From Candidatus Latescibacterota bacterium (GTDB lineage: Bacteria > Latescibacterota > UBA2968 > GCA-2709665), in contig OZ250150.1 of the NCBI GenBank assembly GCA_965237675.1, forward strand, positions 4,736,001 through 4,800,000: DNA of 64,000 bases. Reading direction: 5' to 3'. The notes under the pieces were generated by a model, which was not told the DNA's origin, made no database searches, and was given only the letters and a program-made list of their open reading frames with translations. The position numbers and the translations under genes are program-made. Shown one piece after another: positions 213 through 22,836 of this stretch. The first letter of the stretch is position 1; every line of letters begins with the position of its first letter.

Positions 213-327
213 AGTGGACCTCCGTACGGCCTAACTTGTGATTCTGGGTAGAAAGTTCGGCATATTCCATTCGTAGACGAAAAACTTGATGCAGTTTATT
301 CGCCGTGGATGATTGTTGAACCCCTAA

Positions 328-2015
328 CCCGATTAATTCATGAATCGTCAGATAGAGCATTTTAAGGAAGCAGAAAGAGCTTCCGAGTGAGACAAGAAAC
401 GAAAGCGCATGGGCTGTGACGGATTTGGCGTGTTCAAGCCGTTTGGGCGGCGCCTGCTTTGCCTCGTGACGTCAGGTTGACCTCGATGCCCGTGTCAAGC
501 GCACAGACTTCTCCATGACCTTTGGTGGTGGTCGATGCAAATGTGAAGGCGGGGTCAGCACGTCGATGGGTTATGGAACACCCGTTGCCAGATTATAGAG
601 GATCTTGCCATAAAGGTGTTTGAGTGGAAACGCCGTTGGCAGATGGAACTTGATCCTGGTTTTCAACTCACAAACGCGCCCGGCGACTTTCAAGAGACGA
701 TTTTGCAGGGTATTGAACTGTGCGTTGGTCCACTTCGTGCCGCGCAATCCGATTGCAGCCAGGCTGTGCATCAGGACATAGGCGGCGCTGTGGAGAAAGA
801 GACGGAAGTGATTGGCCTGGAAGGTGTGACAAGAGGTGCGATCGGAATGGAGAAAGGTCTTGTGATTCTTGATGAAGTTTTCCATCCTGCCGCGTGCGCA
901 ATAGGCGGTTTTGTAGATGAATGACGGTTGGGCGCGCTTTAGGTTGGTGACCACGAATCGGATATTGTCTCCTTGCGGCGTCACCTCCGCCTTGCAGATG
1001 ATGCGTTGTGGACACGCCCAGGTGCCGGCCTGATAGGCCCAACAGCGATAAAGGCGCACGGTTTCGCCGGAAGCAGCATACCGCGTTTTGGCCTGGTCTA
1101 TCAAGGACTGTGCCGAGCGCAGGAGTTTGGCGTTGCCGTTCTGTCCGAGGACAAAATACACATTCTGGTCCTCACACAACACGTGCACTTCCGGACACGA
1201 AAAATGCGCATCGCCACGTAACAGGATCTCCACGTCGGGCCAGGCTTTACGCAGGTAGGCGATCACCCGTTTGAGGATGGTGACGATCTCTTTACCCGCA
1301 GGCCGCCTGCCAGGACGCAAGACCGTCGTGATCAACTTGCCGGTTTGGCCTTCATAGATATGCAGGGGCTGGTAGCAATAGCCATTGAAATACGCATTGA
1401 ACAACGACAACTGTTGAGACCCATACACCTTGTCTTCCGTGTCATCGATATCCAACAGAATGGCTTCCGGCGGTTCCTCATACGAGGCGACAAACACATC
1501 CGCAAAGGCCTTGGCGATCCGATACAAATCGGTTCTGCTGATCCGGTTCTCGAACCGACTCATCGTGGGCTGACTGGCCAGATCCGCACCGGAAAGCGGC
1601 AACCGATCACAGGCCGCCTTGAAGCCGGGATCCTCGCGCAACGTCTTGCAATCGTTCGCATCCTCATAGCCACAGGCCATCTGAAAGACACGTTGTTTGA
1701 TCAGGTCCGTCATCGAATGATGTACGTAACTTTGATGTCGATGATCGGTGAGCGCCGCAACCATCCGATGCAAAATGCCGACATTGGCCTCGACCTCACG
1801 AAGCAGCATCACCCCGACGTCGGTCGTCAGCACGCCCCCGTCGAACGTGGCTTCTACCTGCCTACCAGAAAGACTTGCGAAAGACAACCTGTGATGTTTA
1901 TCTTGAACTCCCACGGTAGTTTCCTCCTGTTTCATTGTTATTAGGTTATTTGCGTAACCATAATATAATACAATGACTTGGGTATGGAAACTACCTTTTT
2001 TGTGAATTATTCAGG
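328..2015 (-). mobile_element. IS1380-family insertion sequence, copy 1 (1688 bp)
   Basis: Terminal IRs CCTGAATAATTCAC / CCCGATTAATTCAT; CTAA target duplication at 324-327 and 2016-2019; near-identical inverted copy at 17156-18843. Confidence 0.93.
571..1935 (-). CDS. IS1380-family DDE transposase
   Basis: 454 aa; motifs FDGGVLTTDVG, LDIDDT, FNAYFNGYCYQPL, LRGDAHF, YCARGRMENFIK. Confidence 0.95.
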   Translation of the reverse strand: MKQEETTVGVQDKHHRLSFASLSGRQVEATFDGGVLTTDVGVMLLREVEANVGILHRMVAALTDHRHQSYVHHSMTDLIKQRVFQMACGYEDANDCKTLREDPGFKAACDRLPLSGADLASQPTMSRFENRISRTDLYRIAKAFADVFVASYEEPPEAILLDIDDTEDKVYGSQQLSLFNAYFNGYCYQPLHIYEGQTGKLITTVLRPGRRPAGKEIVTILKRVIAYLRKAWPDVEILLRGDAHFSCPEVHVLCEDQNVYFVLGQNGNAKLLRSAQSLIDQAKTRYAASGETVRLYRCWAYQAGTWACPQRIICKAEVTPQGDNIRFVVTNLKRAQPSFIYKTAYCARGRMENFIKNHKTFLHSDRTSCHTFQANHFRLFLHSAAYVLMHSLAAIGLRGTKWTNAQFNTLQNRLLKVAGRVCELKTRIKFHLPTAFPLKHLYGKILYNLATGVP

Positions 2016-2025
2016 CTAAATGGCT

Positions 2026-3483
2026 TTAGGACGCATAAAGAGCAAATAGCTTGGCGCGGTCAAGGTACACTTTGACCTTGACCCCCCCGCGTGCCTGTGA
2101 GACCATCTTCTCTTCGAGCCCACCCTCTTTATCCCCGACTGCGCCTTGCGGATCGCTTTTCCATTGTACCCGGTATTCTGTTTCATTCGCTGAGAAGAGT
2201 CTGCAGTCTTCTTTGCCAAAACCCGGCACGACCCGGTCAAACGGATCGACTATCTCCACTCGCAGTGACCCGCCGGTCGCATCGGCGTTGATCCACAATG
2301 CATTGGGCTCGATACTCAGCGGGACCGTGGTCACGACCCCCTGCGCCTCCGTCTTCAGACAGACCAGCCGGTCCTTTTCGATCTTTGCCAGATTGATTCC
2401 CCGCCGGGATTCTTCGCCGTAGCGCGTCCCCTCGCCGTGCAATTCGTTTGAGCAGCTGTGATAGACCCAGATCTCGTCGCCACGGACAAAGGGGGCATGA
2501 GACGGATAGACATTTCCACTGTCGTGGCTACCGCGGGGGCCACATTCCAGAATGGGTTCACGGTTGCCCGCCCGATGCCAGGTCCGGCCGTTCTTCGAGT
2601 AGGTCAACTGAATGTCCATCCGGTTCATCCATTCGGGCATCCAATCTTCGATCTGGTTCTGGGCGATCCACCCCTCGTGGAGCGTGTGAAACACGGACAG
2701 GAAGCCGATACGAAAGTCGCGATACGCCAGCGAACTCATGCCGTAAAACTCCTGGTCCTGCGGGGGATCGTGCTCATCGGGTGCGACGATGATCTTGCGC
2801 GGGGTCCAGTTTTCGAAATCATCGCTCTCGGCCATGCAAATGATGCGCACGTTAGGCCGGCCCCGCAGATAAACGACGTAGCGGTGAATTTTTGCATCCC
2901 AATATGCGACCAGGTGGGTATCCGAGCCCTGTGGAATGACCGGGTTGAGCCAGCGTTGGGGCACGTTCCAATGAATTCCGTCGGCAGAATACGCCACACA
3001 GACCGGCTGGACAATGCCGGCGAATATCATGTCTCCGCTCTGGAACATAAAGAGCATCTTGTAGCGCTTGGCTGGGTCTGTTTCGATGGGGTCTTTCATG
3101 ACTCCTGTCCCGGCCCCCCACCTCAAAAAGGGAAAGACCAGGTTATTCTCTTTGCTGCCGCTGTCCTCGACGAGGTTGAGGACGGGTTTTTCCCAGTGGA
3201 TCCCGTCTTGGGATACGGCGTAGGCCAGTCCGTCCGCCACGTCGCCACGCGCTTCGCTCAATCTTCGGCCCACGCCGTACCACATCTTGAAGATATCTTC
3301 GTCGTCGTCGTACAGGACGTTGACGTAGCCGCCGATCAGCCACTCCTCTTCCCAGGCCCGATCCTTCTCAATCAGCGGCTGTTGCGAAGCCTTCTTTGCG
3401 GGTACGACCCCTTGCACGACGCCGTCGAGATTCTCGATTAACGTATTGTCGATGAATAGGAAGGCCGCTTTCTCGTCCGTCAT
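2026..3483 (-). CDS. GH32/GH43-like five-bladed beta-propeller glycoside hydrolase-like protein
   Basis: 485 aa; repeated Asp-box-like motifs (YAVSQDGIHW, YSADGIHW, SDDFENW, YSKNGRTW); same family as 14087-15646. Confidence 0.75.
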   Translation of the reverse strand: MTDEKAAFLFIDNTLIENLDGVVQGVVPAKKASQQPLIEKDRAWEEEWLIGGYVNVLYDDDEDIFKMWYGVGRRLSEARGDVADGLAYAVSQDGIHWEKPVLNLVEDSGSKENNLVFPFLRWGAGTGVMKDPIETDPAKRYKMLFMFQSGDMIFAGIVQPVCVAYSADGIHWNVPQRWLNPVIPQGSDTHLVAYWDAKIHRYVVYLRGRPNVRIICMAESDDFENWTPRKIIVAPDEHDPPQDQEFYGMSSLAYRDFRIGFLSVFHTLHEGWIAQNQIEDWMPEWMNRMDIQLTYSKNGRTWHRAGNREPILECGPRGSHDSGNVYPSHAPFVRGDEIWVYHSCSNELHGEGTRYGEESRRGINLAKIEKDRLVCLKTEAQGVVTTVPLSIEPNALWINADATGGSLRVEIVDPFDRVVPGFGKEDCRLFSANETEYRVQWKSDPQGAVGDKEGGLEEKMVSQARGGVKVKVYLDRAKLFALYAS

Positions 3484-3664
3484 TGGTTTCTCCTGGTATT
3501 GAATTACTCCCTAATCTTCGCGTGAACTCGCAGAGCTTACAATGAGGTCTTCTCTTATTGCGCCAGGCACCACAGCTGCTACATAGAAATCCCCAACATA
3601 CGGTAGAATGTCGAAGATCAATTATCCGTGCTGGGTTGAGGCCGATTCCTCGCTCTTACACAAC

Positions 3665-4540
3665 CTAAATCTCAACAGTCGTAAGCTCGTCAGGACGCAC
3701 GATACAACCGCTATATCCATTCCCATGGTAGCCTCGGCGGAGCCTGCCGACGATGTCCTCACTGCGCGGCGAACCGCAGTGGATGACCACGACCCTCGAG
3801 ATTCCAGCTTCATTAGCGATGTCAACGACCTCTGATATGTCCGCGCTGACGCCCCGGATCGGATGCGAAGCATCTTCGTCATTCTCCTTGAAATTGCGCA
3901 TAGAGAGCCCCGTAACGAATGTATCAACCCCCCTGGCCAATGGCCTCAGTTCGGGACAGTCCGCTGCATCGCACAGGAAGAGCACGCTGCCGCTATCCGT
4001 ATCGATCCGGTACGCTAGCTCGGTTAGGTAAGGCTCGACATGAGGAACCTGTACAGCCGTCGCCTTCCAACCTTTCCCCTCGACAACCGCTCCTGAACTG
4101 ATGTCGGATACATCGACCTTCATGCCCGGACGGGGAAGCGTTCCGCCTCTCCCCACGTGCCCGTGGTGGCTGATGTGGTGTTCTCGACGCGCAACGATGT
4201 CGGAAAGGAAGGCGCCGTCCTTGCCAAAAAGGCGATCGACGAATTCGACAGTCGGAGGCGGACCAAAGATTCTGAGGGGAGGAAGATCGCCGGGGTCTAG
4301 ATCGAACCGTAGCAAGGCAAAACACGGGAAATCAACGATATGATCCGAATGATGGTGAGTTAGGAAAACCGAATTCACCTGTGTAGGACTCATTCCCATG
4401 CGTGCCATCTTGTAGGTGGTGCCGGGGCCGCAATCAACCATGATACGATCGTCACCGATCTCGAGAATGCAGGAACACCCGAAGCGTTCACCCATACGGC
4501 TGGGACGCGGACCACCGTTACCGAGAATGTGTAGCTTCAT
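3665..4540 (-). CDS. Metallo-beta-lactamase-fold hydrolase (RNase Z/AtsA-like)
   Basis: LGNGGP, VDCGPG and THHHSDH motifs. Confidence 0.85.
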   Translation of the reverse strand: MKLHILGNGGPRPSRMGERFGCSCILEIGDDRIMVDCGPGTTYKMARMGMSPTQVNSVFLTHHHSDHIVDFPCFALLRFDLDPGDLPPLRIFGPPPTVEFVDRLFGKDGAFLSDIVARREHHISHHGHVGRGGTLPRPGMKVDVSDISSGAVVEGKGWKATAVQVPHVEPYLTELAYRIDTDSGSVLFLCDAADCPELRPLARGVDTFVTGLSMRNFKENDEDASHPIRGVSADISEVVDIANEAGISRVVVIHCGSPRSEDIVGRLRRGYHGNGYSGCIVRPDELTTVEI

Positions 4541-4745
4541 TTGACCGTCACCGGGTAGCCTTTCACTTATTGTGCACTCATATTGGTCTTCTCGCCGCCA
4601 ACTCTTGCTTATACAGAAAAATCTGGTCGAAAAAACTCCGTATAGCTCATTCGCTGTCGAACAAATCCATCAAGCAAGAGAAGTGGTTCAAAGATTTTCC
4701 TGGCGGCCGGGACGGCCGCCTGTTTTGACTTTGGCGCGTGCTTTC

Positions 4746-4842
4746 TGTTAACGTTATGCCGGTTTGCGAGGGCCGAGCTGACGAGGCGTTGCCGATGGCC
4801 AAGGCGGCGACCGCAGCAGCAGCGCAAACTGTGCTGTTATCT
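4746..4842 (-). repeat. attC-like cassette recombination site
   Basis: + strand TGTTAAC...GTTATCT ends with inner IR GTTTGCG/CGCAAAC. Confidence 0.75.
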
Positions 4843-4894
4843 GACGTGCGATACCCAAATTGTATCGCCCGCAACGTAACGCGGTTCGACACGT

Positions 4895-5295
4895 CTACCT
4901 GGCGACCACCCAATAGGTGTTGGTTTCCTTCGCCGATCCGACGTATGGCTCACAATCTTGGCTTCCGAAGAACTGCCAACGATCGAATCCTCCCAGACGC
5001 AACAGCAATTGGAACTCTTCCGGGTAGATCCATCGTGCACGCATCGGCACTTTTGCTGTCTCACAGTCATGCCTAAAGGTCCAGGTGTAGCTTTCCGTTT
5101 GTGACGAATGGTCGCAGATCTTCGAGTAGCTTACCTCGATCTCTTTCTCGGTCTCGGGATTGATAAACTCGCCAAATCTCTCTTCAGCAGGTGGGGATTC
5201 TTGATGGAGGAGCAAATCGTCTACGTAGGACGGAACGTAGAAATTCAATGGCAAACGTCCCTCGGGAACGAGACAGTCGTAGACACTCTGAAGGG
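4895..5295 (-). pseudogene. 5'-truncated class I SAM methyltransferase (C-terminal half)
   Basis: LQSVYDCLVPEGRLPLNFY...RARWIYPEEFQLLLRLGGF resembles methyltransferase C-termini; no N-terminal SAM-binding motif; upstream DNA is unrelated and AT-richer. Confidence 0.6.
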
Positions 5296-5457
5296 GTCTT
5301 TCGTTTTATGTCCTTTCTTGAGGAAATCCAGTGCATGTCCAAAAGACATGGATATTATTGTCTTTGCTTTTGCCCCCTTTGATTTTCAAATCCTACCCCT
5401 CAAGCTTTTCGTCCGTAACGGGTGGAATTGAACGCAAGAAACTTAATTGAAACAGTA

Positions 5458-6108
5458 CTAAGTTTGCATAAGTTCATGGATCAGCGGTGCGACCTGACGG
5501 ATATCGGTCAGTTGCCGCAGGGCACCGGTGAAGTCCAGGCCGCGCGTCAGGCCCTGCGGTATGACGATGCAGCGCAGCCCGGCCGCCAGTGCGGCGCGCA
5601 GCCCCCGGTCCGAGTCTTCGATTACGACGCATTCGGCGGCGCTAAGGCCGTTTTGCCGCATGGCCGTGAGGTAGGGCTCGGGGTCGGGCTTGGAATGCCG
5701 GTAGTCTTCGCGCACGAGCGTGAAATCGATGCAGTCCAGCAGGCCGGTGGCGGCGTGGATGATCTCAAAGTGCTCCCGCCGCGAACTGGTGACGATGCCC
5801 ATGCGCACCGTGCCGTGGAGTTGGCGCAGCACCTGGCGGGCGCCGTCGATGACGGGTACACCGGCGCGCAAGAGTTCGGTGTAGCGGGCGTTGCGCCAGA
5901 TGCGGGCGGGCTCCAGCGCCTGTTCGTCTATGCGGTGTTCGGCGGCGATCCTGGTAAGGCCTTCGCTGGCCTTGAGGAAGAGCTCAATGAAACGGGCTTC
6001 GCTCAGGCGGACGCCGAGGCGTTCCAGGGTTTCGCGGCAGGCCTGGAAGTACAGGCCTTCGGTGTCGACCAGGACGCCGTCGTTGTCCCAAAGAATGGCT
6101 TTCAGCAT
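5458..6108 (-). CDS. HAD-superfamily phosphatase (beta-PGM/CbbY-like)
   Basis: WDNDGVLVDT motif I, VTSS motif II, KPDPEPY, IEDSDRG. Confidence 0.9.
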   Translation of the reverse strand: MLKAILWDNDGVLVDTEGLYFQACRETLERLGVRLSEARFIELFLKASEGLTRIAAEHRIDEQALEPARIWRNARYTELLRAGVPVIDGARQVLRQLHGTVRMGIVTSSRREHFEIIHAATGLLDCIDFTLVREDYRHSKPDPEPYLTAMRQNGLSAAECVVIEDSDRGLRAALAAGLRCIVIPQGLTRGLDFTGALRQLTDIRQVAPLIHELMQT

Positions 6109-6223
6109 GGCGCTTTATTTCCTTTTCGCCGCTTCGCATAACGGCCTGTTAACCGCTGGCAGCCCCATCACGGCGAAGCCTATCACGGGCAGAGATAAAG
6201 CGCGCACCATCAGGCTTCTGATT

Positions 6224-6979
6224 CTACATGACCGGCCTGAATCTGGCTTGAAGGATCCTTTTGGCTGACAACTCACCAAAAGGCGCACCACAACACCTGA
6301 CATCCTCCACAACCTTGTGGTAATCGTAACTTAATCTGTGGTTTTCCACAAGCCATTCCTGCCCATCCCACCACACTCTGGCATATCCAACTTGATGATC
6401 CCCATCAAACGGAAACCCAACTGAATCAATGATGCTATATCGCTGACCGCACGGAACGCCATAGGACGCGTAGTGAAGGTGTCCTGCCACAATCAGATTG
6501 GCCTTCGCATCCCCCAGCAATGTCCTGGCTTCCTCTTCTGGAGTAACCGTCCGAAGACTGAACGGAACAGGTTGAAGAACCAATACACCGGTCACATCAG
6601 TAGGCGTTGCGTGCACAATGAGAAGATCATCCTCCGGAGACTGCCCTCCTGGTGGCGTTATCCTGTACTCAAAGGGCAGACCCTTCAGATAGCTCACGCC
6701 ATCTGTTCCCAGCTTCTCTCTCACCCAGTCCAGTCTTTCCTCGGAATACTGTTCATCAAAGACCAACAGGTCTGTGTTCCCGTAAATCGTGGGAGCGCCC
6801 AGATTTCGTATTGCGTCAAGACTCTCGACCGGGCGGGGTCCGCTCAGCACCAGGTCGCCAGCGACCACCAGACGATCATAGGGTTGGCTTTGCAGATCCT
6901 CAAGAACAGCGTTGAGTGCAGCGACGTTGCCGTGAATATCTGCAATTACCGCAACTGAATATGACAGGGAATCATTCAT
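6224..6979 (-). CDS. Metallophosphoesterase (YfcE-like)
   Basis: DIHGN, GDLV, GNTD and GHLH motifs. Confidence 0.9.
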   Translation of the reverse strand: MNDSLSYSVAVIADIHGNVAALNAVLEDLQSQPYDRLVVAGDLVLSGPRPVESLDAIRNLGAPTIYGNTDLLVFDEQYSEERLDWVREKLGTDGVSYLKGLPFEYRITPPGGQSPEDDLLIVHATPTDVTGVLVLQPVPFSLRTVTPEEEARTLLGDAKANLIVAGHLHYASYGVPCGQRYSIIDSVGFPFDGDHQVGYARVWWDGQEWLVENHRLSYDYHKVVEDVRCCGAPFGELSAKRILQARFRPVM

Positions 6980-7093
6980 TTCACATCTCCAAAATTTCGA
7001 GATGGCGGGGAGTGGTTCTTGCGCGCTTTCAGTTTTTGCCGCTTATCGTTCGCGCCCGCGGGAAACCCTCCCGCAACGAGTCAAAGATCTTGC

Positions 7094-8407
7094 TCATATT
7101 CGGCCCCCTTCGGGTACCTCGCGCCCGCCGTCCCAGACGCCTGGCTTGTCGGTCCCCGTCGGCCAGTACCCGTCGGCGTCTTCATCCCATTGGTTTCCGC
7201 ACAGCGACGAGATGATGGTCCATTCCGCCGCCCCGAAATCCGGCTCGGGATGGTATAGGAAGCGCTTCAACCCCGCCTCCTGCGAAGCAGTCAGGATGCC
7301 GTAGAGATCGCGCGCCTGCATCGGGTCGCCGCCGTGAGGGCGGCGACCCGTGGACACCCAGGCTATCACCTTGTCGGGATCACCTATGGCCGCCAGGGCC
7401 CGCCGAGTCTCGTTGTAGACCACCTTGGAGAAGAATTCGTCGGGGAAACCCATCTCCATGTCCATAAGCGAGTTGACGCCAGGCAGCTCGATGCCCAACA
7501 GCGCCTTCACTACGGCGAAACACTCCGCCTCGCTCAGGGACGGATTCCACTTTCGCAATCGTCTTACCCAGCGGGATATGGTTCCGTACATGCCGTCCAT
7601 GCCGCGGTGCCAAAAATAGTGTTTCGGAAAGATATAGTCGAAATACTCCGCCATCTGACAGTAATTCTGTCCGGTGAGCGATGACCACGACACGGCCCGC
7701 GGGATACCGCCCAGCTCCACCTTGCGATCGACGGCGTCGACCTGTTGCCGCATGTACTGCCAGTCGAAGCGAGAGAGCTCCTGCCGCTTGCGCAGCCAGT
7801 AGAGCACGTCCTCGTTGACGTCGAACAGGAGCATTGCCCCCAGCATCCCCCCGTCGGCGTGGTACCGCACCATTTCCGGTGTCAGATTGTGCAAACGCTC
7901 CCGAAAGTGGGTGATGCCGCGTTGTATTCGATCCATCTCGGCGCCGACCTGGGCGAAGCGGCCCTCCTCACCCGGACGTATCTCCAGGAGCTCGCCCCCA
8001 TGGTGGAAGGCCAGCTCGTAGTGGTTTTCGCCCGGACCGTCGACAATGACGCCGTGCACCTGTGGAAAGGCGTTCATTTGGTCCTGCACGTGGGAGGTCG
8101 GGCCGCCTCCGGCGAATATCAGGAGTTGCCAGCCCCGCTCCGCGGCGTTGTCCAGCATTGCGTGCAGCTTCTTCTCTTTTGAGAGGTCGCGCGGACGCTG
8201 CTCCGGGACTTCCGCCCCCAGGGCCTCGTACACCTTCGGGTCGGGAGCCCACGCCGGAATGGTGGTGCCATCCTCCTGGAGGAATGCCATGCGGCCGACG
8301 GCCAGACCGCGCACGCCGCCATCCTCCCAGGCGTCGAACCGCTCCTCGAACCCGTCGAGCCAGTGTTCGAACGGGCTGTCACTGCAGGTGAATACCCAGA
8401 GTTTCAT
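7094..8407 (-). CDS. Hypothetical protein
   Basis: 437 aa ORF with AAGGAGG RBS, starting about 35 bp after the core of the attC-like site at 8441-8544. Confidence 0.75.
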   Translation of the reverse strand: MKLWVFTCSDSPFEHWLDGFEERFDAWEDGGVRGLAVGRMAFLQEDGTTIPAWAPDPKVYEALGAEVPEQRPRDLSKEKKLHAMLDNAAERGWQLLIFAGGGPTSHVQDQMNAFPQVHGVIVDGPGENHYELAFHHGGELLEIRPGEEGRFAQVGAEMDRIQRGITHFRERLHNLTPEMVRYHADGGMLGAMLLFDVNEDVLYWLRKRQELSRFDWQYMRQQVDAVDRKVELGGIPRAVSWSSLTGQNYCQMAEYFDYIFPKHYFWHRGMDGMYGTISRWVRRLRKWNPSLSEAECFAVVKALLGIELPGVNSLMDMEMGFPDEFFSKVVYNETRRALAAIGDPDKVIAWVSTGRRPHGGDPMQARDLYGILTASQEAGLKRFLYHPEPDFGAAEWTIISSLCGNQWDEDADGYWPTGTDKPGVWDGGREVPEGGRI

Positions 8408-8440
8408 TTTTCCCTCCTTTGGGGTAGTAGGGGCGATTTC

Positions 8441-8544
8441 CGTTAACGGCCTCGCGATATCCGACGTTGCCGGAGCGTAGCGGAGGTAATGTGCCCGGAG
8501 GGCCGAATGACCGAAGGGAGTGTAGCGGGCATCGCGTGTTAAGC
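8441..8544 (-). repeat. attC-like cassette recombination site
   Basis: CGTTAAC...GTTAAGC ends; inner IR CGCGAT/ATCGCG; internal hairpins. Confidence 0.8.
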
Positions 8545-8760
8545 GTCCGTGTTGTTTTTTGTCATCAGGAATGGAATAAAGGAGCGGACATCACTTTCTC
8601 TGTTTTTCCGGCTTTTCTGCTTTTCAACAAGAAGATTACTGTTGTACCGATTCCTCGCCAGATAGCAACTGACGGAGGTCTATGTTGATATATTCGATAT
8701 GCAGTCGAAACCAACGGATCGACACTGAATCTGAATTGTACCTTCCAACAGAATCTCCCT

Positions 8761-8895
8761 GTTCTCGGCACCCGCAAACCTGCCGAGCCATCGCGAATGC
8801 AGTCAACGGATCCCCATAGTTGCAGACCAGCTACGCGGGCGGCAGGTTTCAGCGCAGGCGCGAACACGCCGACGCCACGGGTGCTCGTGTTAGCT
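8761..8895 (-). repeat. attC-like site that has lost its R' (GTT) box
   Basis: GCACCCG/CGGGTGC and AAACCTGCCG/CGGCAGGTTT stems; GTTAGCT at 8889-8895; resembles the 12537-12679 site but TAAC is absent at 8757-8760. Confidence 0.65.
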
Positions 8896-9084
8896 GCTGT
8901 TTGCGACTTGGAGGGCACCCCGCAAAAGGTCCGATGTCAGAAAAGGGTGAGTGGTGTTATATTCTTCCTGAAAAAGATAGGTGGAAATCCGCCCTTCTCC
9001 AAATTTTCTGTCACCTTTCCGAACCTGAATGACACTTTGTATCGAAGGACTTCGAGCGAATTCTTCTTGGTGAAGGAACATTGC

Positions 9085-13466: not shown

Positions 13467-13567
13467 GGCGTGCGGCACGGTGGTTGGGTGGGGTTGCAGG
13501 ATGCAAGCTTGGGATGTCTTTGTCTTCAGAAAATCTACTCGATTCTCAGAACTACACACGTCATGTC

Positions 13568-13815
13568 ATCCGCCTGTGGCGGCAAGATGAAGATCATTGC
13601 CGCACTGGCCGAGCCCCTGGCCATTCGCACCTACCTCGACGGGGTCGGCCTGGCCTCACGCGCGCCGCCCATCGCGCCTCCACGCCCCCCCCTCCCTCAG
13701 ACCGAATTCGATGACGCCTCCTGACCCCGCCACCCCGAGCCTCAACACCTTGAACGGGTCCAGGGACGCTGTGTCTCCACCGGTCGTGAAGGGCAGCTCG
13801 ATCACACGAGCAAAG
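13568..13815 (+). mobile_element. Remnant of an IS91/ISCR-like transposase 3' end
   Basis: CGGKMKIIAALAEPLAIRTYLDGVGL..RAPPIAPPR resembles IS91-family transposase C-termini; boundaries approximate. Confidence 0.55.
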
Positions 13816-14086
13816 GGGCGGCCACCGACTTTTCGAACAAGACGGGCCGCGGTTTCCAAGCCAACAACGTGTTGAGTCCCGCGCCACGATATTCTTCCAC
13901 GTCGTACAACGCTCCATTTTGCGTCAGCCCGCTAATCCAAAACGGATGCGAACGAACCCAGCTTTTGCCGCGGCCGATCTTCGGTTGCTCGGCAAGGCAA
14001 CAATCCGGCGCGATCAGCGCGATTATGGCCAACGCTAGAAGAGAAATTTGGTGGGTTGATGGAACTCTCATGTTCGGGACTTCCAT
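13802..14086 (-). pseudogene. 3'-truncated secreted protein
   Basis: Signal-peptide-like LLALAIIALIAPDCCLA; abuts the 14087 gene; ends at the IS91-like remnant. Confidence 0.5.
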
Positions 14087-15646: not shown

Positions 15647-15742
15647 CGGTTTACACCTCAGGTGAAATGCTGGATCGACGTGTATCAGCGATTCTTTGCT
15701 TTTGGCGGCCAGGGATGGCCGCTCTGTCTTTGTGCCGCTTTC

Positions 15743-15843
15743 GGTTAACGGTTCTTGGCTTTACGACGTGGGCCAGTCCCAAAGGCCCATGTGCCCGCAG
15801 GGCCGAGGGGCGGATGCCCCGAAGCGTAAAGCCGGTGTTAGCC
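15743..15843 (-). repeat. attC-like cassette recombination site
   Basis: GGTTAAC...GTTAGCC; perfect 9-bp IR GGCTTTACG/CGTAAAGCC. Confidence 0.85.
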
Positions 15844-15922
15844 GTCGTTATTAATTCGTATCCGTTCATTGTCGGGGCCTTATGTATCAAAATGTAGCCG
15901 CTAACTCATTCAGACAGACTTC

Positions 15923-16843
15923 TCATTCACCAAAAAACGGGTACGGCTCGCCGGCTTCCACCAGCCTTTGTACCAGACTCGAGTACTTCAACACCTCCGT
16001 CAGCCGGGTGCGCCAATGCGGGGCGTAGAAGCCGACGAATTCCTGGAAGAACGCTCGCGCATCCTCACTGACGCCATCGAAGTATTGCGGCAGCAAAAAC
16101 CATGGCTGGTCACTGGCGTAGTTCAGCCCCCGCTGGCGCATCGTGAACTCTGCGGCGGCCCGTTTTTTTACCGAGATCATCAACGAGCGCCTGAGCTTGT
16201 CGGTGTGATAGCGGCCCCGATGAATGCACAACTGGGTAAACAGCACCGCGTCACCGGGTTCCTGGTGGAGACGAACGGCGCCAGGCATATCGTTCGAGCG
16301 GTTGTGGATCCCATCATCGGCGACGCAGATCGCGTGCTCTTCGGGGGAGTAGTCACGCAGGTGAGACCCCGGCACCACTTCGAGATCGTCGGTAGGGACC
16401 AATGCGATTTGCATCTGCAACCCGGCTCCGGTCTCCGGTCTCCGGGATACGTCTGCTTCTGCACCGATCTTGTCCTTGTGCCAAAATCCGTCCTGGCTTT
16501 CTCCGGTCGGATTACAGTAGAGACTGCTCAAGGCGAAGAGGAATTCTTCATCCAAGGCTGCGCTCAGCGATTCGACAACTTGGGGCGACCCCATGGCATT
16601 GAGCAGAAAGGCGAGATCGTCGGGGTGATCGCGGTGATATTCCGGGTCGTTCAGGTGCCTCATGTAATTGGCCTGGGGCCCCACCGGTGGATTGTCACAG
16701 CGAGGAGCGCGCCGCCACTGTTCCAGCACTCGCTCACAGATCTCGCGCAGCCGTTTTGTCGTCGCTGCGTCGAACAAACCGCGCACCACGGCGTAAGAGT
16801 GTTGGCGTAGCTGCCCAGGGCAGGGTTCAGTAGCAATACTCAT
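15923..16843 (-). CDS. Phytanoyl-CoA dioxygenase (PhyH) family Fe/2OG oxygenase
   Basis: WHKD (HxD), VVPGSH, PGDAVLF...IHRG. Confidence 0.85.
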   Translation of the reverse strand: MSIATEPCPGQLRQHSYAVVRGLFDAATTKRLREICERVLEQWRRAPRCDNPPVGPQANYMRHLNDPEYHRDHPDDLAFLLNAMGSPQVVESLSAALDEEFLFALSSLYCNPTGESQDGFWHKDKIGAEADVSRRPETGAGLQMQIALVPTDDLEVVPGSHLRDYSPEEHAICVADDGIHNRSNDMPGAVRLHQEPGDAVLFTQLCIHRGRYHTDKLRRSLMISVKKRAAAEFTMRQRGLNYASDQPWFLLPQYFDGVSEDARAFFQEFVGFYAPHWRTRLTEVLKYSSLVQRLVEAGEPYPFFGE

Positions 16844-16954
16844 TATATCCTCTTGTGTTGCTGTAAGAATTGCGTCGCAATTGGACTGTAAAAGTGCGGA
16901 CAGGCTGTCTCGTGCTGTCTAACTACGTATGGAAATCAATGCTCTATTAATTGC

Positions 16955-17065
16955 GGCTAACGTTCGTTCTGGCCACTTGCGAACCCGCCGAAGCGTCAGC
17001 GTAGGCGGGTTGCCGTCAGGCCGAAGGGAGCGTAAGCGACCGAAGCGCAAGTGGACCTGTTAGCA
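16955..17065 (-). repeat. attC-like cassette recombination site
   Basis: GGCTAAC...GTTAGCA; perfect 9-bp IR CCACTTGCG/CGCAAGTGG. Confidence 0.85.
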
Positions 17066-17155
17066 GCCGGTGCTTCGGTTCTTTGCCTCAAAAAGCCTTT
17101 CCATCACTTCCAAGCATCCACTCCAATTATCCCTGAATCTTTCGTGGACTTCTAG

Positions 17156-18843
17156 CCTGAATAATTCACAAAAAAGGTAGTTTCCATACCCAAGTCATTG
17201 TATTATATTATGGTTACGCAAATAACCTAATAACAATGAAACAGGAGGAAACTACCGTGGGAGTTCAAGATAAACATCACAGGTTGTCTTTCGCAAGTCT
17301 TTCTGGTAGGCAGGTAGAAGCCACGTTCGACGGGGGCGTGCTGACGACCGACGTCGGGGTGATGCTGCTTCGTGAGGTCGAGGCCAATGTCGGCATTTTG
17401 CATCGGATGGTTGCGGCGCTCACCGATCATCGACATCAAAGTTACGTACATCATTCGATGATGGACCTGATCAAACAACGTGTCTTTCAGATGGCCTGTG
17501 GGTATGAGGATGCGAATGATTGCAAGACGTTACGCGAGGACCCCGGCTTCAAGGCGGCCTGTGATCGGTTGCCGTTGTCTGGCGCGGACCTGGCCAGTCA
17601 GCCCACGATGAGTCGGTTCGAGAACCGCATCAGCAGAACCGATTTGTATCGGATCGCCAAGGCCTTTGCGGATGTGTTTGTCGCCTCGTATGAGGAACCG
17701 CCGGAAGCCATTCTGTTGGACATCGATGACACCGAAGACAAGGTGCATGGGTCTCAACAGTTGTCGTTGTTCAATGCGTATTTCAATGGCTATTGCTACC
17801 AGCCCCTGCATATCTATGAAGGCCAAACCGGCAAGTTGATCACGACGGTCTTGCGTCCTGGCAGGCGGCCTGCGGGTAAAGAGATCGTCACCATCCTCAA
17901 ACGGGTGATCGCCTACCTGCGTAAAGCCTGGCCCGACGTGGAGATCCTGTTACGTGGCGATGCGCATTTTTCGTGTCCGGAAGTGCACGTGTTGTGTGAG
18001 GAAGAAGATGTGTATTTTGTCCTCGGACAGAACGGCAACGCCAAACTCCTGCGGAAGGCACAGTCCTTGATAGACCAGGCCAAAACGCGGTATGCCGATT
18101 CCGGAGAAACCGTGCGCCTTTATCGCTGTTGGGCCTATCAGGCCGGCACCTGGGCGTGTCCACAACGCATCGTCTGCAAGGCGGAAGTGACACCGCAAGG
18201 TGTCAATATCCGATTCGTGGTCACCAACCTGAAGCGCGCCCAACCGTCATTCATCTACAAAACCGCCTATTGCACACGCGGCAGGATGGAAAACTTCATC
18301 AAAAATCACAAGACCTTTCTCCATTCCGATCGCACCTCTTGTCACACCTTCCAGGCCAATCACTTCCGTCTCTTTCTCCACAGCGCCGCCTATGTCCTGA
18401 TGCACAGCCTGGCTGCAATCGGATTGCGCGGCACGAAGTGGACCAACGCACAGTTCAATACCCTGCAAAATCGTCTCTTGAAAGTCGCCGGGCGCGTTTG
18501 TGAGTTGAAAACTAAAATCAAGTTCCATCTGCCAACGGCGTTTCCACTCAAACACCTTTATGGCAAGATCCTCTATAATCTGGCAACGGGTGTTCCATAA
18601 CCCATCGACGTGCTGACCCCGCCTTCACATTTGCATCGACCACCACCAAAGGTCATGGAGAAGTCTGTGCGCTTGACACGGGCATCGAGGTCAACCTGAC
18701 GTCACGAGGCAAAGCAGGCGCCGCCCAAACGGCTTGAACACGCCAAATCCGTCACAGCCCATGCGCTTTCGTTTCTTGTCTCACTCGGAAGCTCTTTCTG
18801 CTTCCTTAAAATGCTCTATCTGACGATTCATGAATTAATCGGG
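17156..18843 (+). mobile_element. IS1380-family insertion sequence, copy 2 (1688 bp)
   Basis: Same IRs as copy 1; CTAG duplication at 17152-17155 and 18844-18847. Confidence 0.93.
17236..18600 (+). CDS. IS1380-family DDE transposase
   Basis: 454 aa, a few substitutions relative to 571-1935. Confidence 0.95.
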   Translation: MKQEETTVGVQDKHHRLSFASLSGRQVEATFDGGVLTTDVGVMLLREVEANVGILHRMVAALTDHRHQSYVHHSMMDLIKQRVFQMACGYEDANDCKTLREDPGFKAACDRLPLSGADLASQPTMSRFENRISRTDLYRIAKAFADVFVASYEEPPEAILLDIDDTEDKVHGSQQLSLFNAYFNGYCYQPLHIYEGQTGKLITTVLRPGRRPAGKEIVTILKRVIAYLRKAWPDVEILLRGDAHFSCPEVHVLCEEEDVYFVLGQNGNAKLLRKAQSLIDQAKTRYADSGETVRLYRCWAYQAGTWACPQRIVCKAEVTPQGVNIRFVVTNLKRAQPSFIYKTAYCTRGRMENFIKNHKTFLHSDRTSCHTFQANHFRLFLHSAAYVLMHSLAAIGLRGTKWTNAQFNTLQNRLLKVAGRVCELKTKIKFHLPTAFPLKHLYGKILYNLATGVP

Positions 18844-19079
18844 CTAGGATCCAAAGACCTTCGTAGTCTTTCAGATGAGGTATCGCGTCGGAATAGGGGA
18901 CCCTCCCCCATCCAGGTGGCAGATGGAGGTCGGTCTCACCATATCATGATTCGAACTGGGAAGACATTCGACTGCCCCTCTACTCCAAGATTCGACCTCT
19001 GTGGCTCTGTGGTGAGGCCTTACGATCCCGCTTCCGGGAAGGACGTTGGGATAACAGCCTGGCAAGGTCGATGATTCAA

Positions 19080-21338
19080 TCAGAACTCAGCGGCAATCAT
19101 CGCGTACTGTCCAATGTTCGTTAATATGGTTTCCAAGTGGTTTCCGTCGAACGTGACCTCCAGGTCATCTCCCGTGCAAACGTCCCACACGCGACGAGGA
19201 GTGCCCCGCTCCGTGAGCTGCCAGCGCAGGTTCACTTCGGGTATCGTGGTCACATAGTCAAACTGTGGGCTGAAGCGCGGCCAGATCCCCGGCAGATGCT
19301 CGACGCGCTCGCCGGTGTGATTGATCAGAAACAACACTTGGCTTCCCGGTTTCTCATTCGGAATCATCACGAGTTGGTTCGGGCCATCGGTCATCAGAGG
19401 CCGGCCCTCCGGGTAGAGCCAATCCACCACGGCGCCCAGAAGATCGCGGACCACCAGCAGGCGATATTCGAAATGAAGCTCCTCCACCGGCGCGGCCAGA
19501 TAGACGACGCGGCCCTTGCCAACCGTCCGGCAGGTGACGGCGGGACACAGAGCGTCGTCCTCGCGCCCGCCGAAGACGATGTTCGCCACCACGTCGGTTC
19601 CCGGCCGCGCTTGGACGAACTCGAACCGATTGAGCGGCCACAGCTCATGCGAGCACCCCTCGGCCAGCCATTGACCTGGAACGCAGCAGCCGTACGTGTC
19701 GAACGTCCCGGCGGCCCAGAGGTGTTGTTCGTAATCAGCGAATTGGTCGGGGTTCGGGTCCACGCGGTCCACGCCCAGAAGGTCCGCCAAGGCGAAGTTG
19801 TCGCGCATCTCATCGGGCTCGGCACCGTACAGGCTCGTCCGGTACGTCGCCAGGAGCCGCCCGCCCGCCTTCACATATTCCGTGATGCCTTCGACTTCCT
19901 CCCGCGTGAGATGGCCGACGTTGGGCAGAAGCAGAACGGGATACTTTGCCAACGCCGCTGGATCGGAGAGAACCCGCTCCTCGATCACCGATGTCGGCAA
20001 ATGGTTGGCCAGCATGGTCGAGAAGGCCCCGCGACGGCAGGATTGCTGCGGGGGCGTGCGCACGAGATAGCCCGCCTCGGAGAGCGGGGCCTCGAGCTCC
20101 CCCGGACGGTCGGCGAGGTCCTGCTTGGACTGGCCGATGACATCGTGCCGACGATCGCGCATCACCAGGGGCTCGGCGCGGAACCGCACCCGCTCGAGCA
20201 TCTCATACACCCGCACCGGCAAAACAAACGGAATAGCAACAAACGGTGACGGGTGGAGATCTTCGAAGAGTGATTCGTTCCTCTCCAGGATCTCAAGGAA
20301 CTCCGCCAGCTCACGATTGGCTTTATGGGGAGGCGACAGCCAAAGGTTCACGCCGCACGCCACCAGGACGGCCCCTCCGGAAGCAAAGCTGGCTGCCGCC
20401 TCCTCGACGAGTTCCATGCCGAAGCACTGCGCCCGCGACCAGCCCGTCAAGGCGCCGACGTATTGCCACATGGCCCAACCCGACGACTCGGCCAGACTGG
20501 CCGCCTCGAGCCGATGAAGGAAGTCGCCCCCGGCCTCGTAGAGGAATCCATCGTGCACCTCCACGATCCTGCGTTCGGGCCAGTCGCCCACACCCTGGCC
20601 GTGCGTCAGCACCGGGATGTCCTTCTTCTTTCGCGTCGCGGCGACGAATTCGAGAAAGACATCGCCGACGATCCTGCCGTACTGCAGGCTCCACTCTTCC
20701 AGCATCTCCTGGTCTTCCCGAGGCAGGCTGTGCGGATCGGGTGCATACGGCATTGGGCAGCCGAATTGCCTCTCGAACTTCTCGAGGCAATAGTCGCAGT
20801 AGCACAAGGGCGACTGCGGGGTGTGGTGCGAATGGTAAGGACAGGCAGAATCGGTGTAGATCGCGTCGACGTCGTGGTCCACCACTTGTGCGATGAAAGC
20901 GCAGATGGCCTCTCGGTACGGTGTGTTGAAGCAGACGTGCCGGTGAAATCCGCCGCCGTGGTGCCTCAGGACAGGAGCGTCGCCTTCGGGGCTGGGGCGG
21001 TACATCCACTCCGGATGATGGATCAGCATGTTGTCTTCGGGAATAATGTGCCCCACGGGAATGTACCCGATGACGCGCACGTCCCGCGCATGGGCCTCGG
21101 CGATGGTCTCGGCGAGCAGGTCGCGCTCACTTAATTGAGGGTGCGGGGGAAAGAACTCATTGGGGAAGACCGCCCATTTGCCCGCGCTGCCGAACCAAAT
21201 GGCGTTGGCGTGGTATTTCCGCACGACATCGACGAGCTGCTTCGCGTCAAAGTCGATGTCGGGCCAGAAGGGCGGGTGGTATTGCTCTATCTGAAAGGTG
21301 CGCGCCCGCCGTACCCACTCGTGACTTGGCTTGATCAT
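19080..21338 (-). CDS. Glycoside-hydrolase-like protein (GHL6/GH42-like TIM barrel plus beta-galactosidase trimerisation domain)
   Basis: HPQLSERDLLAETIAEAHARDVRVIGY, CFNTPY, CYCDYC..KF, YPVLLLPN..YVKAGGRLLAT, GKGRVVYL; GGAGG RBS before ATG 21338. Confidence 0.75.
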   Translation of the reverse strand: MIKPSHEWVRRARTFQIEQYHPPFWPDIDFDAKQLVDVVRKYHANAIWFGSAGKWAVFPNEFFPPHPQLSERDLLAETIAEAHARDVRVIGYIPVGHIIPEDNMLIHHPEWMYRPSPEGDAPVLRHHGGGFHRHVCFNTPYREAICAFIAQVVDHDVDAIYTDSACPYHSHHTPQSPLCYCDYCLEKFERQFGCPMPYAPDPHSLPREDQEMLEEWSLQYGRIVGDVFLEFVAATRKKKDIPVLTHGQGVGDWPERRIVEVHDGFLYEAGGDFLHRLEAASLAESSGWAMWQYVGALTGWSRAQCFGMELVEEAAASFASGGAVLVACGVNLWLSPPHKANRELAEFLEILERNESLFEDLHPSPFVAIPFVLPVRVYEMLERVRFRAEPLVMRDRRHDVIGQSKQDLADRPGELEAPLSEAGYLVRTPPQQSCRRGAFSTMLANHLPTSVIEERVLSDPAALAKYPVLLLPNVGHLTREEVEGITEYVKAGGRLLATYRTSLYGAEPDEMRDNFALADLLGVDRVDPNPDQFADYEQHLWAAGTFDTYGCCVPGQWLAEGCSHELWPLNRFEFVQARPGTDVVANIVFGGREDDALCPAVTCRTVGKGRVVYLAAPVEELHFEYRLLVVRDLLGAVVDWLYPEGRPLMTDGPNQLVMIPNEKPGSQVLFLINHTGERVEHLPGIWPRFSPQFDYVTTIPEVNLRWQLTERGTPRRVWDVCTGDDLEVTFDGNHLETILTNIGQYAMIAAEF

Positions 21339-21700
21339 AGCGATGACCTCCAAAATCTGTACCGTCTTTTTTTACCCGCAGAGCCCGCGGAGAACGCAGA
21401 GAACGGCCTTCCATGATTCACGGCCGCTCATCATGATCGAGAAGCCGAGAAATATCAGGCTGAACCCAGCCAGCAGCAGCCCAAGCTCGGCTGTCGCCGT
21501 CAACTCAGGATCGTCCCGAGCAACAGGAGCAAAGTCAGAGAATGGACGAAAAACGCTCTGGTTGCCAGCGCTCCCACGTTTAACCCGAGGACCTCAACGA
21601 CCCTCCCCGCTGTCATGAGGATGGAAGCAGGAGTGCAGGTAACGCCGCAACCAGAGCGGCACGGAGGTCATTCGCAGTCATTGGTTTCGACTGGCATGGC

Positions 21701-21834
21701 TGCTAACTACGGGATTACCGAACAGTTACGGTAATGCGTACCTGATCCGAAGATCTGCGAACGTTCGGGAACATCCCACTTTGAAGCTTGTAGCCCGAAC
21801 ATGTTCAGGAATGCTTCCTATGGTGGCATCGTCT
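21701..21834 (-). other. attI-like primary recombination site 1
   Basis: Single GTTAGCA core (21707-21701) with no attC hairpin; palindromes ATTACCG-N8-CGGTAAT, CGAACGTTCG, GAACATGTTC; lies between the integrase stop and the first cassette; conserved at 24144-24278. Confidence 0.75.
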
Positions 21835-22836
21835 CTAACCAAAAACTGCCCCCCTTTCTTCCATCAATGCATCCAGCGGGCTCTGGATTTTCGCGAGATC
21901 CCGATTCGTCACCCGAGTATAGATCTGTGTGGTTTTTGGGCTTGCATGCCCCAGCAACACCTGGATATATCGCAGGTCGGTCCCGCGTTCAAGCAGGTGT
22001 GTCGCAAAGGAATGCCGTAGCGTATGTATCGATATCCGCTTGTTAATATTGGCTTTCTTGCAAGCCCGGTCAAATGCTTTCTGAACTGATCGCTCGGTCA
22101 AATGCCGTCCCGGCCTTGCGCCCGGGAACAACCATGTTTCGGGTGGATATTGGCGCCTGTAGTCTTGAACCGCCTTCTGTGCGACCGCGGAGAGCATTGT
22201 GTAGCGATCCTTCCGGTGCTTGCCCTGACGAACATGAACCAGCTTTCGGTCCAGGTCGATGTCTTCGACCTTTAGCCGGACCACTTCACCCAATCGGAGG
22301 CCTCCGGAATAGGTCAACAGAATGATCGCCCGATGCTTCAGGTTTTCTACCGCATCCAGTAACCGAAGCACTTCGGGCCGGCTCAACACAGTGGGCAATT
22401 TGTGCTCTTTTTTCGGACGGGGCAGGTTTTCAAGCGGATGCTGATCTTTCAACACTCGAAGGAACAGGAATTTCAATGCACTTACGCACTGATTGACGTA
22501 ACTGTGCGAGGCTCCCGTTTCAAGGAGGTGATACACGTAATTTCGGACCTCCATCTCCCCAAAAGATCGAGGTGCCTTGCGGCAATAATTGGCAAATCGT
22601 CTGACGTGACCAAGGTACGCTTTTCGCGTTTTCGCGCGATACCCCCTGGGTTGTCTCACTCTATATTGGCACGTAGGGAAGGCCGGTTGTTCATCTGCCA
22701 TAAGCATTCGCGCATCGGTAACTGAGCGCATTCGGGGGCTGAAAAGCTTAAAGAGAATCCCCACAAAAACGGGAGCAAGAATGAGCAAAGCAATCACTAC
22801 AATTGAAGGATCGGGAACCATCGAATTCCCTTGCAA
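21835..22836 (-). CDS. Tyrosine recombinase (N-terminal SAM-like domain, integron-integrase-related), lacking the IntI-specific insertion; N-terminus apparently chimeric
   Basis: RGY..KTRKAYLGHVRRF N-domain; catalytic GLRLGE (R), GKHRKDR (K), [13 protein letters not shown] (HxxR), LLGH and TQIYT (Y) all intact. Confidence 0.9.
   Translation of the reverse strand: MQGNSMVPDPSIVVIALLILAPVFVGILFKLFSPRMRSVTDARMLMADEQPAFPTCQYRVRQPRGYRAKTRKAYLGHVRRFANYCRKAPRSFGEMEVRNYVYHLLETGASHSYVNQCVSALKFLFLRVLKDQHPLENLPRPKKEHKLPTVLSRPEVLRLLDAVENLKHRAIILLTYSGGLRLGEVVRLKVEDIDLDRKLVHVRQGKHRKDRYTMLSAVAQKAVQDYRRQYPPETWLFPGARPGRHLTERSVQKAFDRACKKANINKRISIHTLRHSFATHLLERGTDLRYIQVLLGHASPKTTQIYTRVTNRDLAKIQSPLDALMEERGAVFG

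Follow-up and report, generated by a model that had tools for sequence, protein, structure and literature searches.

Hairpin sites, an attI-like site and a recombinase gene

The stretch of DNA described here (the window, G000:C1:4736001-4800000, 64 kb in length) belongs to a 5.6 Mb Candidatus Latescibacterota genome that is 99.9% complete. Its left part holds an integron-like array, in which gene cassettes separated by attC-like hairpin sites are headed by an attI-like site and the gene of a tyrosine recombinase. A fold-based scan, together with reading of the intergenic DNA, revealed imperfect palindromes of 76–143 nt with outer boxes of the form xxxTAAC ... GTTAxxx. From five similar sites and a hand-written structure we built a covariance model (R1), which favours that subfamily and under-scores others. 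Run over the 64 kb with filters off (E<0.01), R1 recovered eight sites, all on the plus strand and between 4743 and 17068, and gave no match in the other 40 kb of the window (24000-64000). An initial annotation, made from the letters alone, had counted nine attC-like palindromes, and the number holds as the eight R1 matches plus one mini-site of 19 nt read by eye. It had also started the array at 229 (CGGCCTAAC), where there is neither a palindrome nor an R1 match. The sites (with R1 scores), the attI-like region and the recombinase open reading frame (ORF) are as follows.

4746-4842 (R1 match 4743-4845), plus strand: attC-like site, E 5e-5
6136-6154: mini-site of 19 nt, GCATAAC GGCCT GTTAACC, read by eye, no score from R1
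8441-8544 (R1 match 8438-8547), plus strand: attC-like site, E 8e-4
10619-10701 (R1 match 10616-10704), plus strand: attC-like site, 95.7 bits
11634-11723 (R1 match 11631-11726), plus strand: attC-like site, 77.7 bits
12537-12679 (R1 match 12551-12667), plus strand: attC-like site with a long inner hairpin, partial match with E 0.002, minimum free energy -72.4 kcal/mol
13391-13466 (R1 match 13388-13469), plus strand: attC-like site, E 2e-4, also in the fold scan
15743-15843 (R1 match 15740-15846), plus strand: attC-like site, E 8e-5, identical to a copy 27.5 kb leftward
16955-17065 (R1 match 16952-17068), plus strand: attC-like site, 33.4 bits, E 1e-6, R'' box a 7/7 complement of the attI box
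21701-21834, minus strand: attI-like region, with the box TGCTAAC on the plus strand (G|TTAGCA on the coding strand) at 21701-21707, a 6-nt spacer, and hairpin arms at 21714-20 and 21729-35
21835-22836, minus strand: tyrosine recombinase ORF, 333 codons from a TTG, with family homology only over 21838-22648

The mini-site at 6136-6154 is possibly a collapsed site. The array does not end with the window: nine further R1 sites lie in the next 20 kb to the left and seven beyond these, all on the plus strand, and the array extends at least 27 kb leftward. Elsewhere in the genome we found a second cluster of five R1-type sites, again all on the plus strand (C1:1405615-1412294; L211 9615-16294). A search with P0002, a close metagenomic relative of the window recombinase, found no homologue near this cluster, the three matches of the genome all being in the main locus. 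R1 sites thus cluster in two loci of the 5.6 Mb genome, all on one strand.

Other ways of detecting the sites were less useful. An inverted-repeat search recovered nearly none of them because their arms are gapped, one fold-scan match (7265-7418) was rejected as false, lying inside an ORF, and Rfam gave no match in positions 1-26000. Alignments of all sites with MAFFT had misaligned right arms and yielded only seven pairs with RNAalifold, and R1 was used instead. For the comparison of 41 sites from 13 sources the alignment was fitted to the model and so favours the structure; in it 93.5% of cells pair, against 74.9% after shuffling (0/500 shuffles as high). Compensatory two-sided changes were found in 15 of the 23 pairs, slid controls pair at only 27–41%, and at least 37 of the 41 sites retain an internal CG-AAC...GTT motif. 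Even with a model-fitted alignment, true selection on the stems is indicated by the slid controls and by the numbers of compensatory changes.

Cassette boundaries and the predicted crossover point

Structured sites with complementary R'' and R' boxes between neighbours, one mark of an integron system, are present along the array. In five of nine consecutive steps, the one from attI to the first site included, the R' box read on the minus strand is perfectly complementary (7/7) to the R'' box of the following site, and two further steps match at 6/7. A perfect match would arise by chance in about 1/64 of steps, since four of the seven bases are fixed.

A second mark, variable cassettes at a single point beside attI, emerged from the comparison of attI copies. 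The attI box sits ~130 nt beyond the recombinase stop, and a segment of ~380 bp made of attI and the 3' end of the recombinase gene occurs three times in the genome (at -4221, 21694 and 24137, negative numbers lying left of the window). These copies are 90–93% identical and diverge exactly at ..CTAA|C, with a different cassette after each, so that the attI-like site proposed by the initial annotation is borne out, with its junction at 21701-21707. Three other genomes (G012, G088 and G090) bring the number of attI copies to six; all are conserved as far as GTTA, after which six different cassettes follow. From the attI hairpin toward the stop codon (21740-21834) there are two further GAAC..GTTC palindromes, which resemble the CG-AAC..GTT motif within the sites and may serve as accessory binding sites.

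Self-comparison of the locus revealed a duplicated cassette, 15730-16964 being repeated at -11792..-10558 with 99.8% identity. The duplicate holds one whole site and the minus-strand PhyH ORF and ends inside the box of the next site; the ORF would therefore travel with its downstream site, with the exchange point in the box that is the 'left' one on the plus strand. Since the attI copies diverge there too, these junctions place the predicted crossover, like that of integrons, at G|TT of the coding strand. Another cassette, with DUF4160/DUF2442, is present twice at 98.7% identity, once ending at an attC box (11746-12543) and once at an attI box (23353-24150). In the 99%-identical G008 this cassette is flanked on its left as one of the two copies is and on its right as the other is, and one cassette boundary passes from attC to attI precisely at the box. 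An attI x attC exchange at that point would have this outcome, homologous recombination between the repeated segments being a possible alternative source.

We also considered the plus strand as 'top' (the longer 5' arm, as in canonical attC, checked on a class 3 integron) and rejected it, as the minus strand is identified as the coding or top strand by the cassette duplicates, by the attI junctions and by the strands of the ORFs. The longest ORF is on the recombinase strand in 8/10 window cassettes, in line with the mostly co-oriented genes that had been described initially.

With these observations it seems to us very improbable that the palindromes are repetitive extragenic palindrome (REP)-like or terminator-like repeats with no role in recombination, beside a recombinase that is a chromosomal Xer or a phage remnant. 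They are, as such repeats would be, GC-rich intergenic hairpins after genes, but box complementarity ties neighbouring sites together, the duplicated units are bounded at boxes, the attI junctions are exact, the sites cluster in two genome loci on one strand, and the genome has a separate Xer pair.

Mirrored geometry of the sites

To compare the sites with canonical attC, we folded them under constraints and counted the unpaired bases of the outer stem, the controls being two attC of a class 3 integron and two sites beside the canonical IntI of genome G017. On the coding strand the controls have spacers of 5 nt and 5–6 nt and carry their extra bases in the R''-L'' arm, whereas the sites of the present type have 2–3 unpaired nt beside R'' and 5–7 beside R'. 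The arm with more unpaired bases was distributed as follows.

Canonical controls (n=4): R' arm 0, tie 0, R'' arm 4, not scorable 0
Window sites (n=8): R' arm 4, tie 0, R'' arm 1, not scorable 3
Sites outside the window (n=17): R' arm 15, tie 1, R'' arm 1, not scorable 0

The sites do not have the extrahelical bases on the R''-L'' arm that define canonical attC geometry; they are mirrored variants of attC, in which the arm asymmetry is reversed. Both site types are found in G017, where a plus-strand IntI, canonical sites and plus-strand ORFs converge on R1-type sites, minus-strand ORFs and a minus-strand gene for a long form of the recombinase described below. The 3' end of this long-form gene is followed by IS3-like sequence (IS, insertion sequence). 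As a separate observation, the canonical IntI of G017 (G017:C1:2478001-2518000, L054/L055; 464 bits with TIGR02249) is followed ~390 bp later by an IS91-type unit consisting of a recombinase and a Y2 transposase, and a second, partial intI has the same IS91-type neighbour.

A recombinase without the IntI insertion

Integrons are defined and detected by an insertion specific to their integrase, IntI, and this insertion (the I2 region, around patch III) is held to permit the recombination of folded single-stranded attC. The window ORF (21835-22836, minus strand) reads ...RKDR-YTMLSAVAQKAVQDYRRQYPPET-WLFPG, and the 23 amino acids (aa) initially reported between KDR and WLFP are exact in its translation. 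Pfam recognizes the catalytic domain (PF00589, 148.5 bits, profile positions 3-169 of 172) and the core-binding domain (PF13495, SAM_4, 58 bits). The initial annotation had taken the protein for a non-IntI enzyme, and it does stay under the cut-offs of the integron-integrase profiles, with 214 bits against 265 for TIGR02249 and 140 against 435 for NF011946; for NF040815 it reaches 218.6 against 220. The TIGR02249 match comes in two stretches, which on the genome cover profile positions 11-174 and 235-315 and skip 175-234, the IntI-specific part. Both Xer equivalogs are missed by far (TIGR02224, 194 against 335; TIGR02225, 186 against 330).

In an alignment with relatives from three phyla, IS91 forms included, the spacing from KDR to W/VFP is 54 aa in three canonical IntI, which also carry a second insertion of 10 aa, and 23 aa in the window protein and nine insertion-less relatives. 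A tenth such relative, an IS91 form, has 29 aa, and the two Xer of the genome itself (a separate gene pair at C1:1530648 and C1:5369063) have 30 and 33 aa. By both the profile gap and the spacing, the window recombinase is without the IntI-specific insertion. No IntI or IntI pseudogene was found near the array, where all TIGR02249 matches belong to the insertion-less family, and none of the TIGR02249 matches in this genome exceeds the cut-off, so that the lack of a canonical IntI elsewhere in the genome, on which the initial proposal depended, also holds.

More than 7,000 database proteins match the window recombinase at E<1e-20, the best of them 360–390 aa long. A few are named in their source, as 'tyrosine-type recombinase/integrase', 'XerD' or 'site-specific tyrosine recombinase/integron integrase'. 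Full-length members (long forms) consist of an N-terminal beta/alpha domain of ~95 aa, a SAM_4 core-binding domain and the catalytic domain. The N-terminal domain has the motif ..IxGRRW..KxWxxP.., conserved in the long forms of every phylum examined, and presumably acts as an 'arm-type' domain. AlphaFold models it as beta-beta-alpha-beta-beta-alpha-beta with a pLDDT of ~85. It has no Pfam family, a protein atlas search with it gave scores of only 0.82–0.84, under the useful level, and Foldseek with the whole model returned recombinase folds only and was uninformative on this domain. Shorter relatives (~280–315 aa) are followed by an IS91 Y2 transposase, with a Y2 match in 27 screened loci; in the window genome neither PF04986 nor tblastn gave a match to such a transposase. 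The close metagenomic relatives are P0002, P0003 and P0008, and a scan of metagenomes with P0002 gave 19 loci, of which one was a 3' fragment (L148) and the others were distant.

Compared with P0002 (376 aa), the window protein is 96–97% identical, aligning to residues 106-373, and is without the first ~105 residues, ~100 aa being replaced by unrelated sequence; DNA homology to G012 stops at 22648. Having lost the family N-terminal domain with its 5' end, the window enzyme is probably inactive or crippled, as judged from this comparison. Exactly at the truncation point there is a 30-nt sequence (22650-22679) with three further copies in the genome (C1:932608, 3052251 and 4901922), which may be the end of a mobile element behind the truncation.

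We placed the family in a maximum-likelihood tree of 48 rows and 283 columns (six canonical IntI, 38 insertion-less proteins and four Xer). The six canonical IntI form a clade (100/100) that excludes all 38 insertion-less rows. Its sister (87/77) is made up of these 38 proteins, i.e. long forms, IS91 forms, short forms and the window protein, and the two together are split from the four Xer at 100/100. The 'Xer-like' label of the initial annotation was consequently dropped; on its placement in the tree the enzyme belongs to a sister lineage of IntI. Among relatives of solved structure IntI4 (2a3v) matches best, with E 5e-43 over two stretches, and XerA comes after it; Foldseek ranks them alike. 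The placement agrees with the 'Integron-like subgroup' of Smyshlyaev et al. (10.1101/542381, PMC8138268).

A true IntI that lost its insertion secondarily, in other words an ordinary integron lineage with a degenerate integrase, is an explanation we consider improbable. It would fit the 214 bits on TIGR02249, the rank of IntI4 as best solved relative and the modest 87/77 for monophyly of the insertion-less proteins. Against it speak the 100/100 IntI clade from which all 38 insertion-less rows are excluded, the uniform 23-aa spacing (the window protein and 9/10 aligned insertion-less relatives), the N-terminal domain gained by the family and not present in IntI, and the different geometry of the sites.

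Association of the recombinase family with cassette arrays

Within the phylum, homologues read toward opposite-strand R1 sites in G012, G008, G015, G038, G017 (L039), G088, G090, G098, G111 and G077. The copy in G088 is intact (1-374, 78% identical), with the same attI and a perfect box chain into two sites. No R1 sites were found near the homologues of G017 L033/34, G017 L041/42 and G021. R1 sites are present in 18/22 genomes of the taxonomic family and in 13/14 other genomes of the genus. At E<=1e-30, P0002 has a match in 3 of these 14, which shows that arrays last longer than the enzyme does. No TIGR02249 match exceeds the cut-off in the 14 other genus genomes or in five further array-bearing genomes (G088, G090 and three Bacteroidota), and among 41 relatives only G017 and G036 have one.

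Outside the phylum we collected 80 distant loci, 26 with long forms and 54 with short forms. A self-BLAST repeat screen of these was too insensitive for small arrays and was replaced by a box-chain test (at least two links, each at least 9 nt complementary, starting -40 to +300 nt from the gene end), which also detects canonical arrays (L060) and is thus non-specific for site type. Among long-form loci with at least 3 kb downstream, 7/13 have a box chain, starting at +48 to +105: L065 from Spirochaetota, and L068, L071, L077, L082, L088 and L092 from Bacteroidota. The mirror control on the upstream side gave 0/22, short-form loci gave 1/35, and 1.07 Mb of shuffled loci contained seven chains at any position. 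Of the long-form loci 13/26 run into a contig end no more than 2 kb downstream, against 16/54 of the short-form loci, as expected if repeats trail the gene and break the assembly. In L071, L077, L082, L092 and L179 the longest ORF is on the recombinase strand in 24/25 cassettes, a single ORF filling most of them, and the Bacteroidota attI consists of a small hairpin, 3–5 nt and then GTT, the same design as in the window. The link between homologues and arrays, which the initial annotation had put forward as a check, was therefore found both within the phylum and in distant loci, and comparison of the loci indicates that, in several phyla, the closest relatives of IntI without the insertion stand at the head of cassette arrays that have a proper attI. 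In addition, short forms of Saccharibacteria, Patescibacteria and Woesearchaeota (L085, L090, L091 and L136) have a single box link 13–242 nt past the gene, too weak for an array call.

These data also bear on the possibility of an orphan canonical-integron array (CALIN), built by a true IntI that was then lost, with the recombinase an unrelated mobile-element integrase that landed at attI. Genus arrays are indeed far commoner than the recombinase (13/14 against 3/14 other genomes), IS91-type relatives insert into arrays and adjoin canonical intI, and Cury et al. 2016 (PMC4889954) judged non-IntI recombinases near attC not to be integron integrases. We nevertheless hold this explanation to be unlikely. 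The recombinase has the same position and orientation in 7/13 distant loci, against 0/22 in the mirror control; attI has the hairpin-spacer-box module of the sites themselves; the asymmetry is mirrored even within one genome that bears both site types; neither IntI nor an IntI pseudogene lies near the array; and the genome has no IS91 transposase.

Relation to known systems

Like canonical integrons, the system described here has a tyrosine recombinase with an adjacent attI, mostly single co-oriented ORFs, YAAC/GTTR outer boxes, a G|TT crossover, stems kept for their structure and a diverse accessory cargo. The closest canonical type is that of 'inverted' or 'reverse' integrons, with intI co-oriented with the cassettes, as in Treponema and in Archaea, where attI is immediately downstream of intI; the co-oriented type is described in Cury et al. 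2016 (PMC4889954) and in a preprint on archaeal integrons (10.1101/2022.02.06.479319). In contrast to canonical integrons, the enzyme is without the IntI insertion (23 against 54 aa) and in its long forms has an extra N-terminal domain, attI bears its own small hairpin, and the extra unpaired bases are on the R' arm and not on R''-L''.

IS91-associated recombinases share with the present enzyme the insertion-less clade beside IntI, the 23-aa spacing and the SAM_4 and catalytic domains. They are, however, without the N-terminal domain, multi-copy and followed by a Y2 transposase, whereas long forms precede arrays; the window recombinase has no Y2 transposase directly after it. XerC and XerD have the same core-binding and catalytic architecture and no IntI insertion, but the window recombinase is far under the Xer cut-offs, the tree separates the two at 100/100 and the genome encodes a separate Xer pair elsewhere.

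A standard finder would probably label this locus a CALIN (Cury 2016, Neron 2022), if its attC model scores the sites. Unlike in a CALIN, a dedicated and phylogenetically coherent recombinase and an attI head the array. Cury et al. 2016 (PMC4889954) report 50 non-IntI recombinases co-localised with attC, judged not to be IntI, and Neron et al. 2022 few integrons in Bacteroidetes. Our searches of open-access literature text gave no account of arrays that have an insertion-less relative of IntI at their head.

Interpretation of the array and its enzyme family

We consider it likely that a large sedentary cassette array has its attI-proximal part in this region, and that the enzyme dedicated to it, instead of being an IntI, comes from the insertion-less sister clade of IntI. 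Sites, junctions and the homologue-array link, all of them comparative data, support the cassette-array system run by a non-IntI recombinase that the initial annotation had proposed.

The data establish the anatomy of the system, the covariation of its sites, the junctions, the co-occurrence across phyla and the phylogeny; catalysis by the family enzyme, the strand used and the role of the N-terminal domain we infer from the same comparisons. The enzyme gene lies upstream of the cassettes in the same orientation, with attI (a small hairpin, a spacer of 3–6 nt and a G|TT box) 50–130 nt after its stop. Each cassette closes with an imperfect palindrome of 76–215 nt with outer boxes xxxYAAC ... 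GTTRxxx, and crossover would occur in the box at the coding-strand 3' end of the site (G|TT). With the crossover in this 3' box, circular cassettes would be inserted at attI and excised through attC x attC exchange. The stems being kept by compensatory change, the substrate is likely a folded strand or a cruciform. Its unpaired bases, on the arm beside the crossover box and so mirroring canonical attC, would be expected for an enzyme without the I2 helix.

Several points weigh against this reading. The case for recombination by a family enzyme is one of sequence comparison. We found no intact enzyme in the genus: the window copy is truncated, the G012 copy is split over two frames and the G008 copy is internally deleted. 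Arrays persist without the enzyme, and the link between them could be historical only. The same-family genome G017 has a canonical IntI, which may possibly act in trans on R1-type sites. IS91-linked relatives occur as passengers, inside an array in G020 and beside the canonical intI in G017, and short forms are found inside arrays in opposite orientation in G016, G102, G105 and G106. Six of the 13 testable long-form loci (L072, L078, L101, L114, L130 and L135) have no chain of at least two links, support for the insertion-less clade is moderate with just four Xer as outgroup, and many of the compared genomes are kin, which makes the counts non-independent.

Among the short forms, those of ~325 aa in G016 (L037/L038), G102 (L185), G105 (L187) and G106 (L184) constitute a tight clade, without the N-terminal domain and located inside or beside R1 arrays, opposite to the cassettes; one in G101 is placed likewise. 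No Y2 transposase was found in the fetched flanks of those in G016, G102, G105 and G106, and they may be cassette-borne or represent a third arrangement.

The layout common to relatives in other phyla suggests an overlooked second kind of integron. More tentatively, and with slightly less than even confidence, we propose that the long-form insertion-less recombinases represent a second, ancient integron branch, sister to IntI, with its own mirrored hairpin sites, a hairpin-bearing attI and the arm-type N-terminal domain, which would comprise at least Bacteroidota, Spirochaetota and this phylum, plus the single-link hints in the Candidate Phyla Radiation (CPR) and DPANN. If so, cassette arrays would be older than the I2 insertion, I2 would be one of two solutions for reading folded sites, and IS91-associated integrases would be offshoots of an integron-type enzyme.

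Should the enzymes be active, finders would under-count integron-type gene capture, reporting nothing or orphan clusters in phyla thought nearly integron-free such as Bacteroidota. The origin of IntI from Xer-like enzymes would become directly testable through a natural relative that faces hairpins without I2, the mirrored asymmetry would be a natural experiment on strand choice, and the origin of IS91-linked integrases would gain context.

Cassette cargo and decay in the window genome

The remaining features of the locus are listed below.

323-2018, minus strand: IS copy with a DDE_Tnp_1_4 transposase, absent at this place in G012
2019-21700, minus strand: cassettes, with Pfam matches to MBL-fold, HAD, metallophosphoesterase, ankyrin, a weak GT2-like match, DUF4160/DUF2442, NUDIX, PhyH and GHL6, and several family-less ORFs
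17152-18846, plus strand: second IS copy, inverted, inside the attI-proximal cassette
23353-24150, minus strand: copy of the DUF4160/DUF2442 cassette, ending exactly at the second attI box
24145-24569, minus strand: second platform remnant, an attI copy and the last ~95 recombinase codons, abutting the conserved flank

The cargo of the window is typical accessory material. The recombinase copy adjoining the flank is a 3' stump (24279-24569), a third recombinase stump lies 4 kb left of the window, and a third IS copy is also to the left. In G012 there is a single recombinase gene, split across two frames and directly beside the conserved flank, with no IS copies and with attI-proximal cassettes that differ from those of the window. 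With a truncated enzyme, two 3' stumps and three IS copies, the system in this genome is decayed, and the element is, for this genome, a decaying store of accessory genes.

The MBL-fold cassette gene (3659-4602) has 92% DNA identity to positions 1645-2588 of L055, in the canonical-integron region of G017, a genome of another genus, which suggests that cassettes have been exchanged across genera or across the two array types. Remnants of an extracytoplasmic function (ECF) sigma factor, in which stops interrupt region-4-like text, are found on the plus strand at 8797-9623, in the only stretch where the box chain breaks; loss of a site may explain this break. Just past the array, the conserved flank carries a 708-aa family-B DNA polymerase (25467-27593, plus strand; PF00136 and PF03104), which G012 shares at 86% identity.

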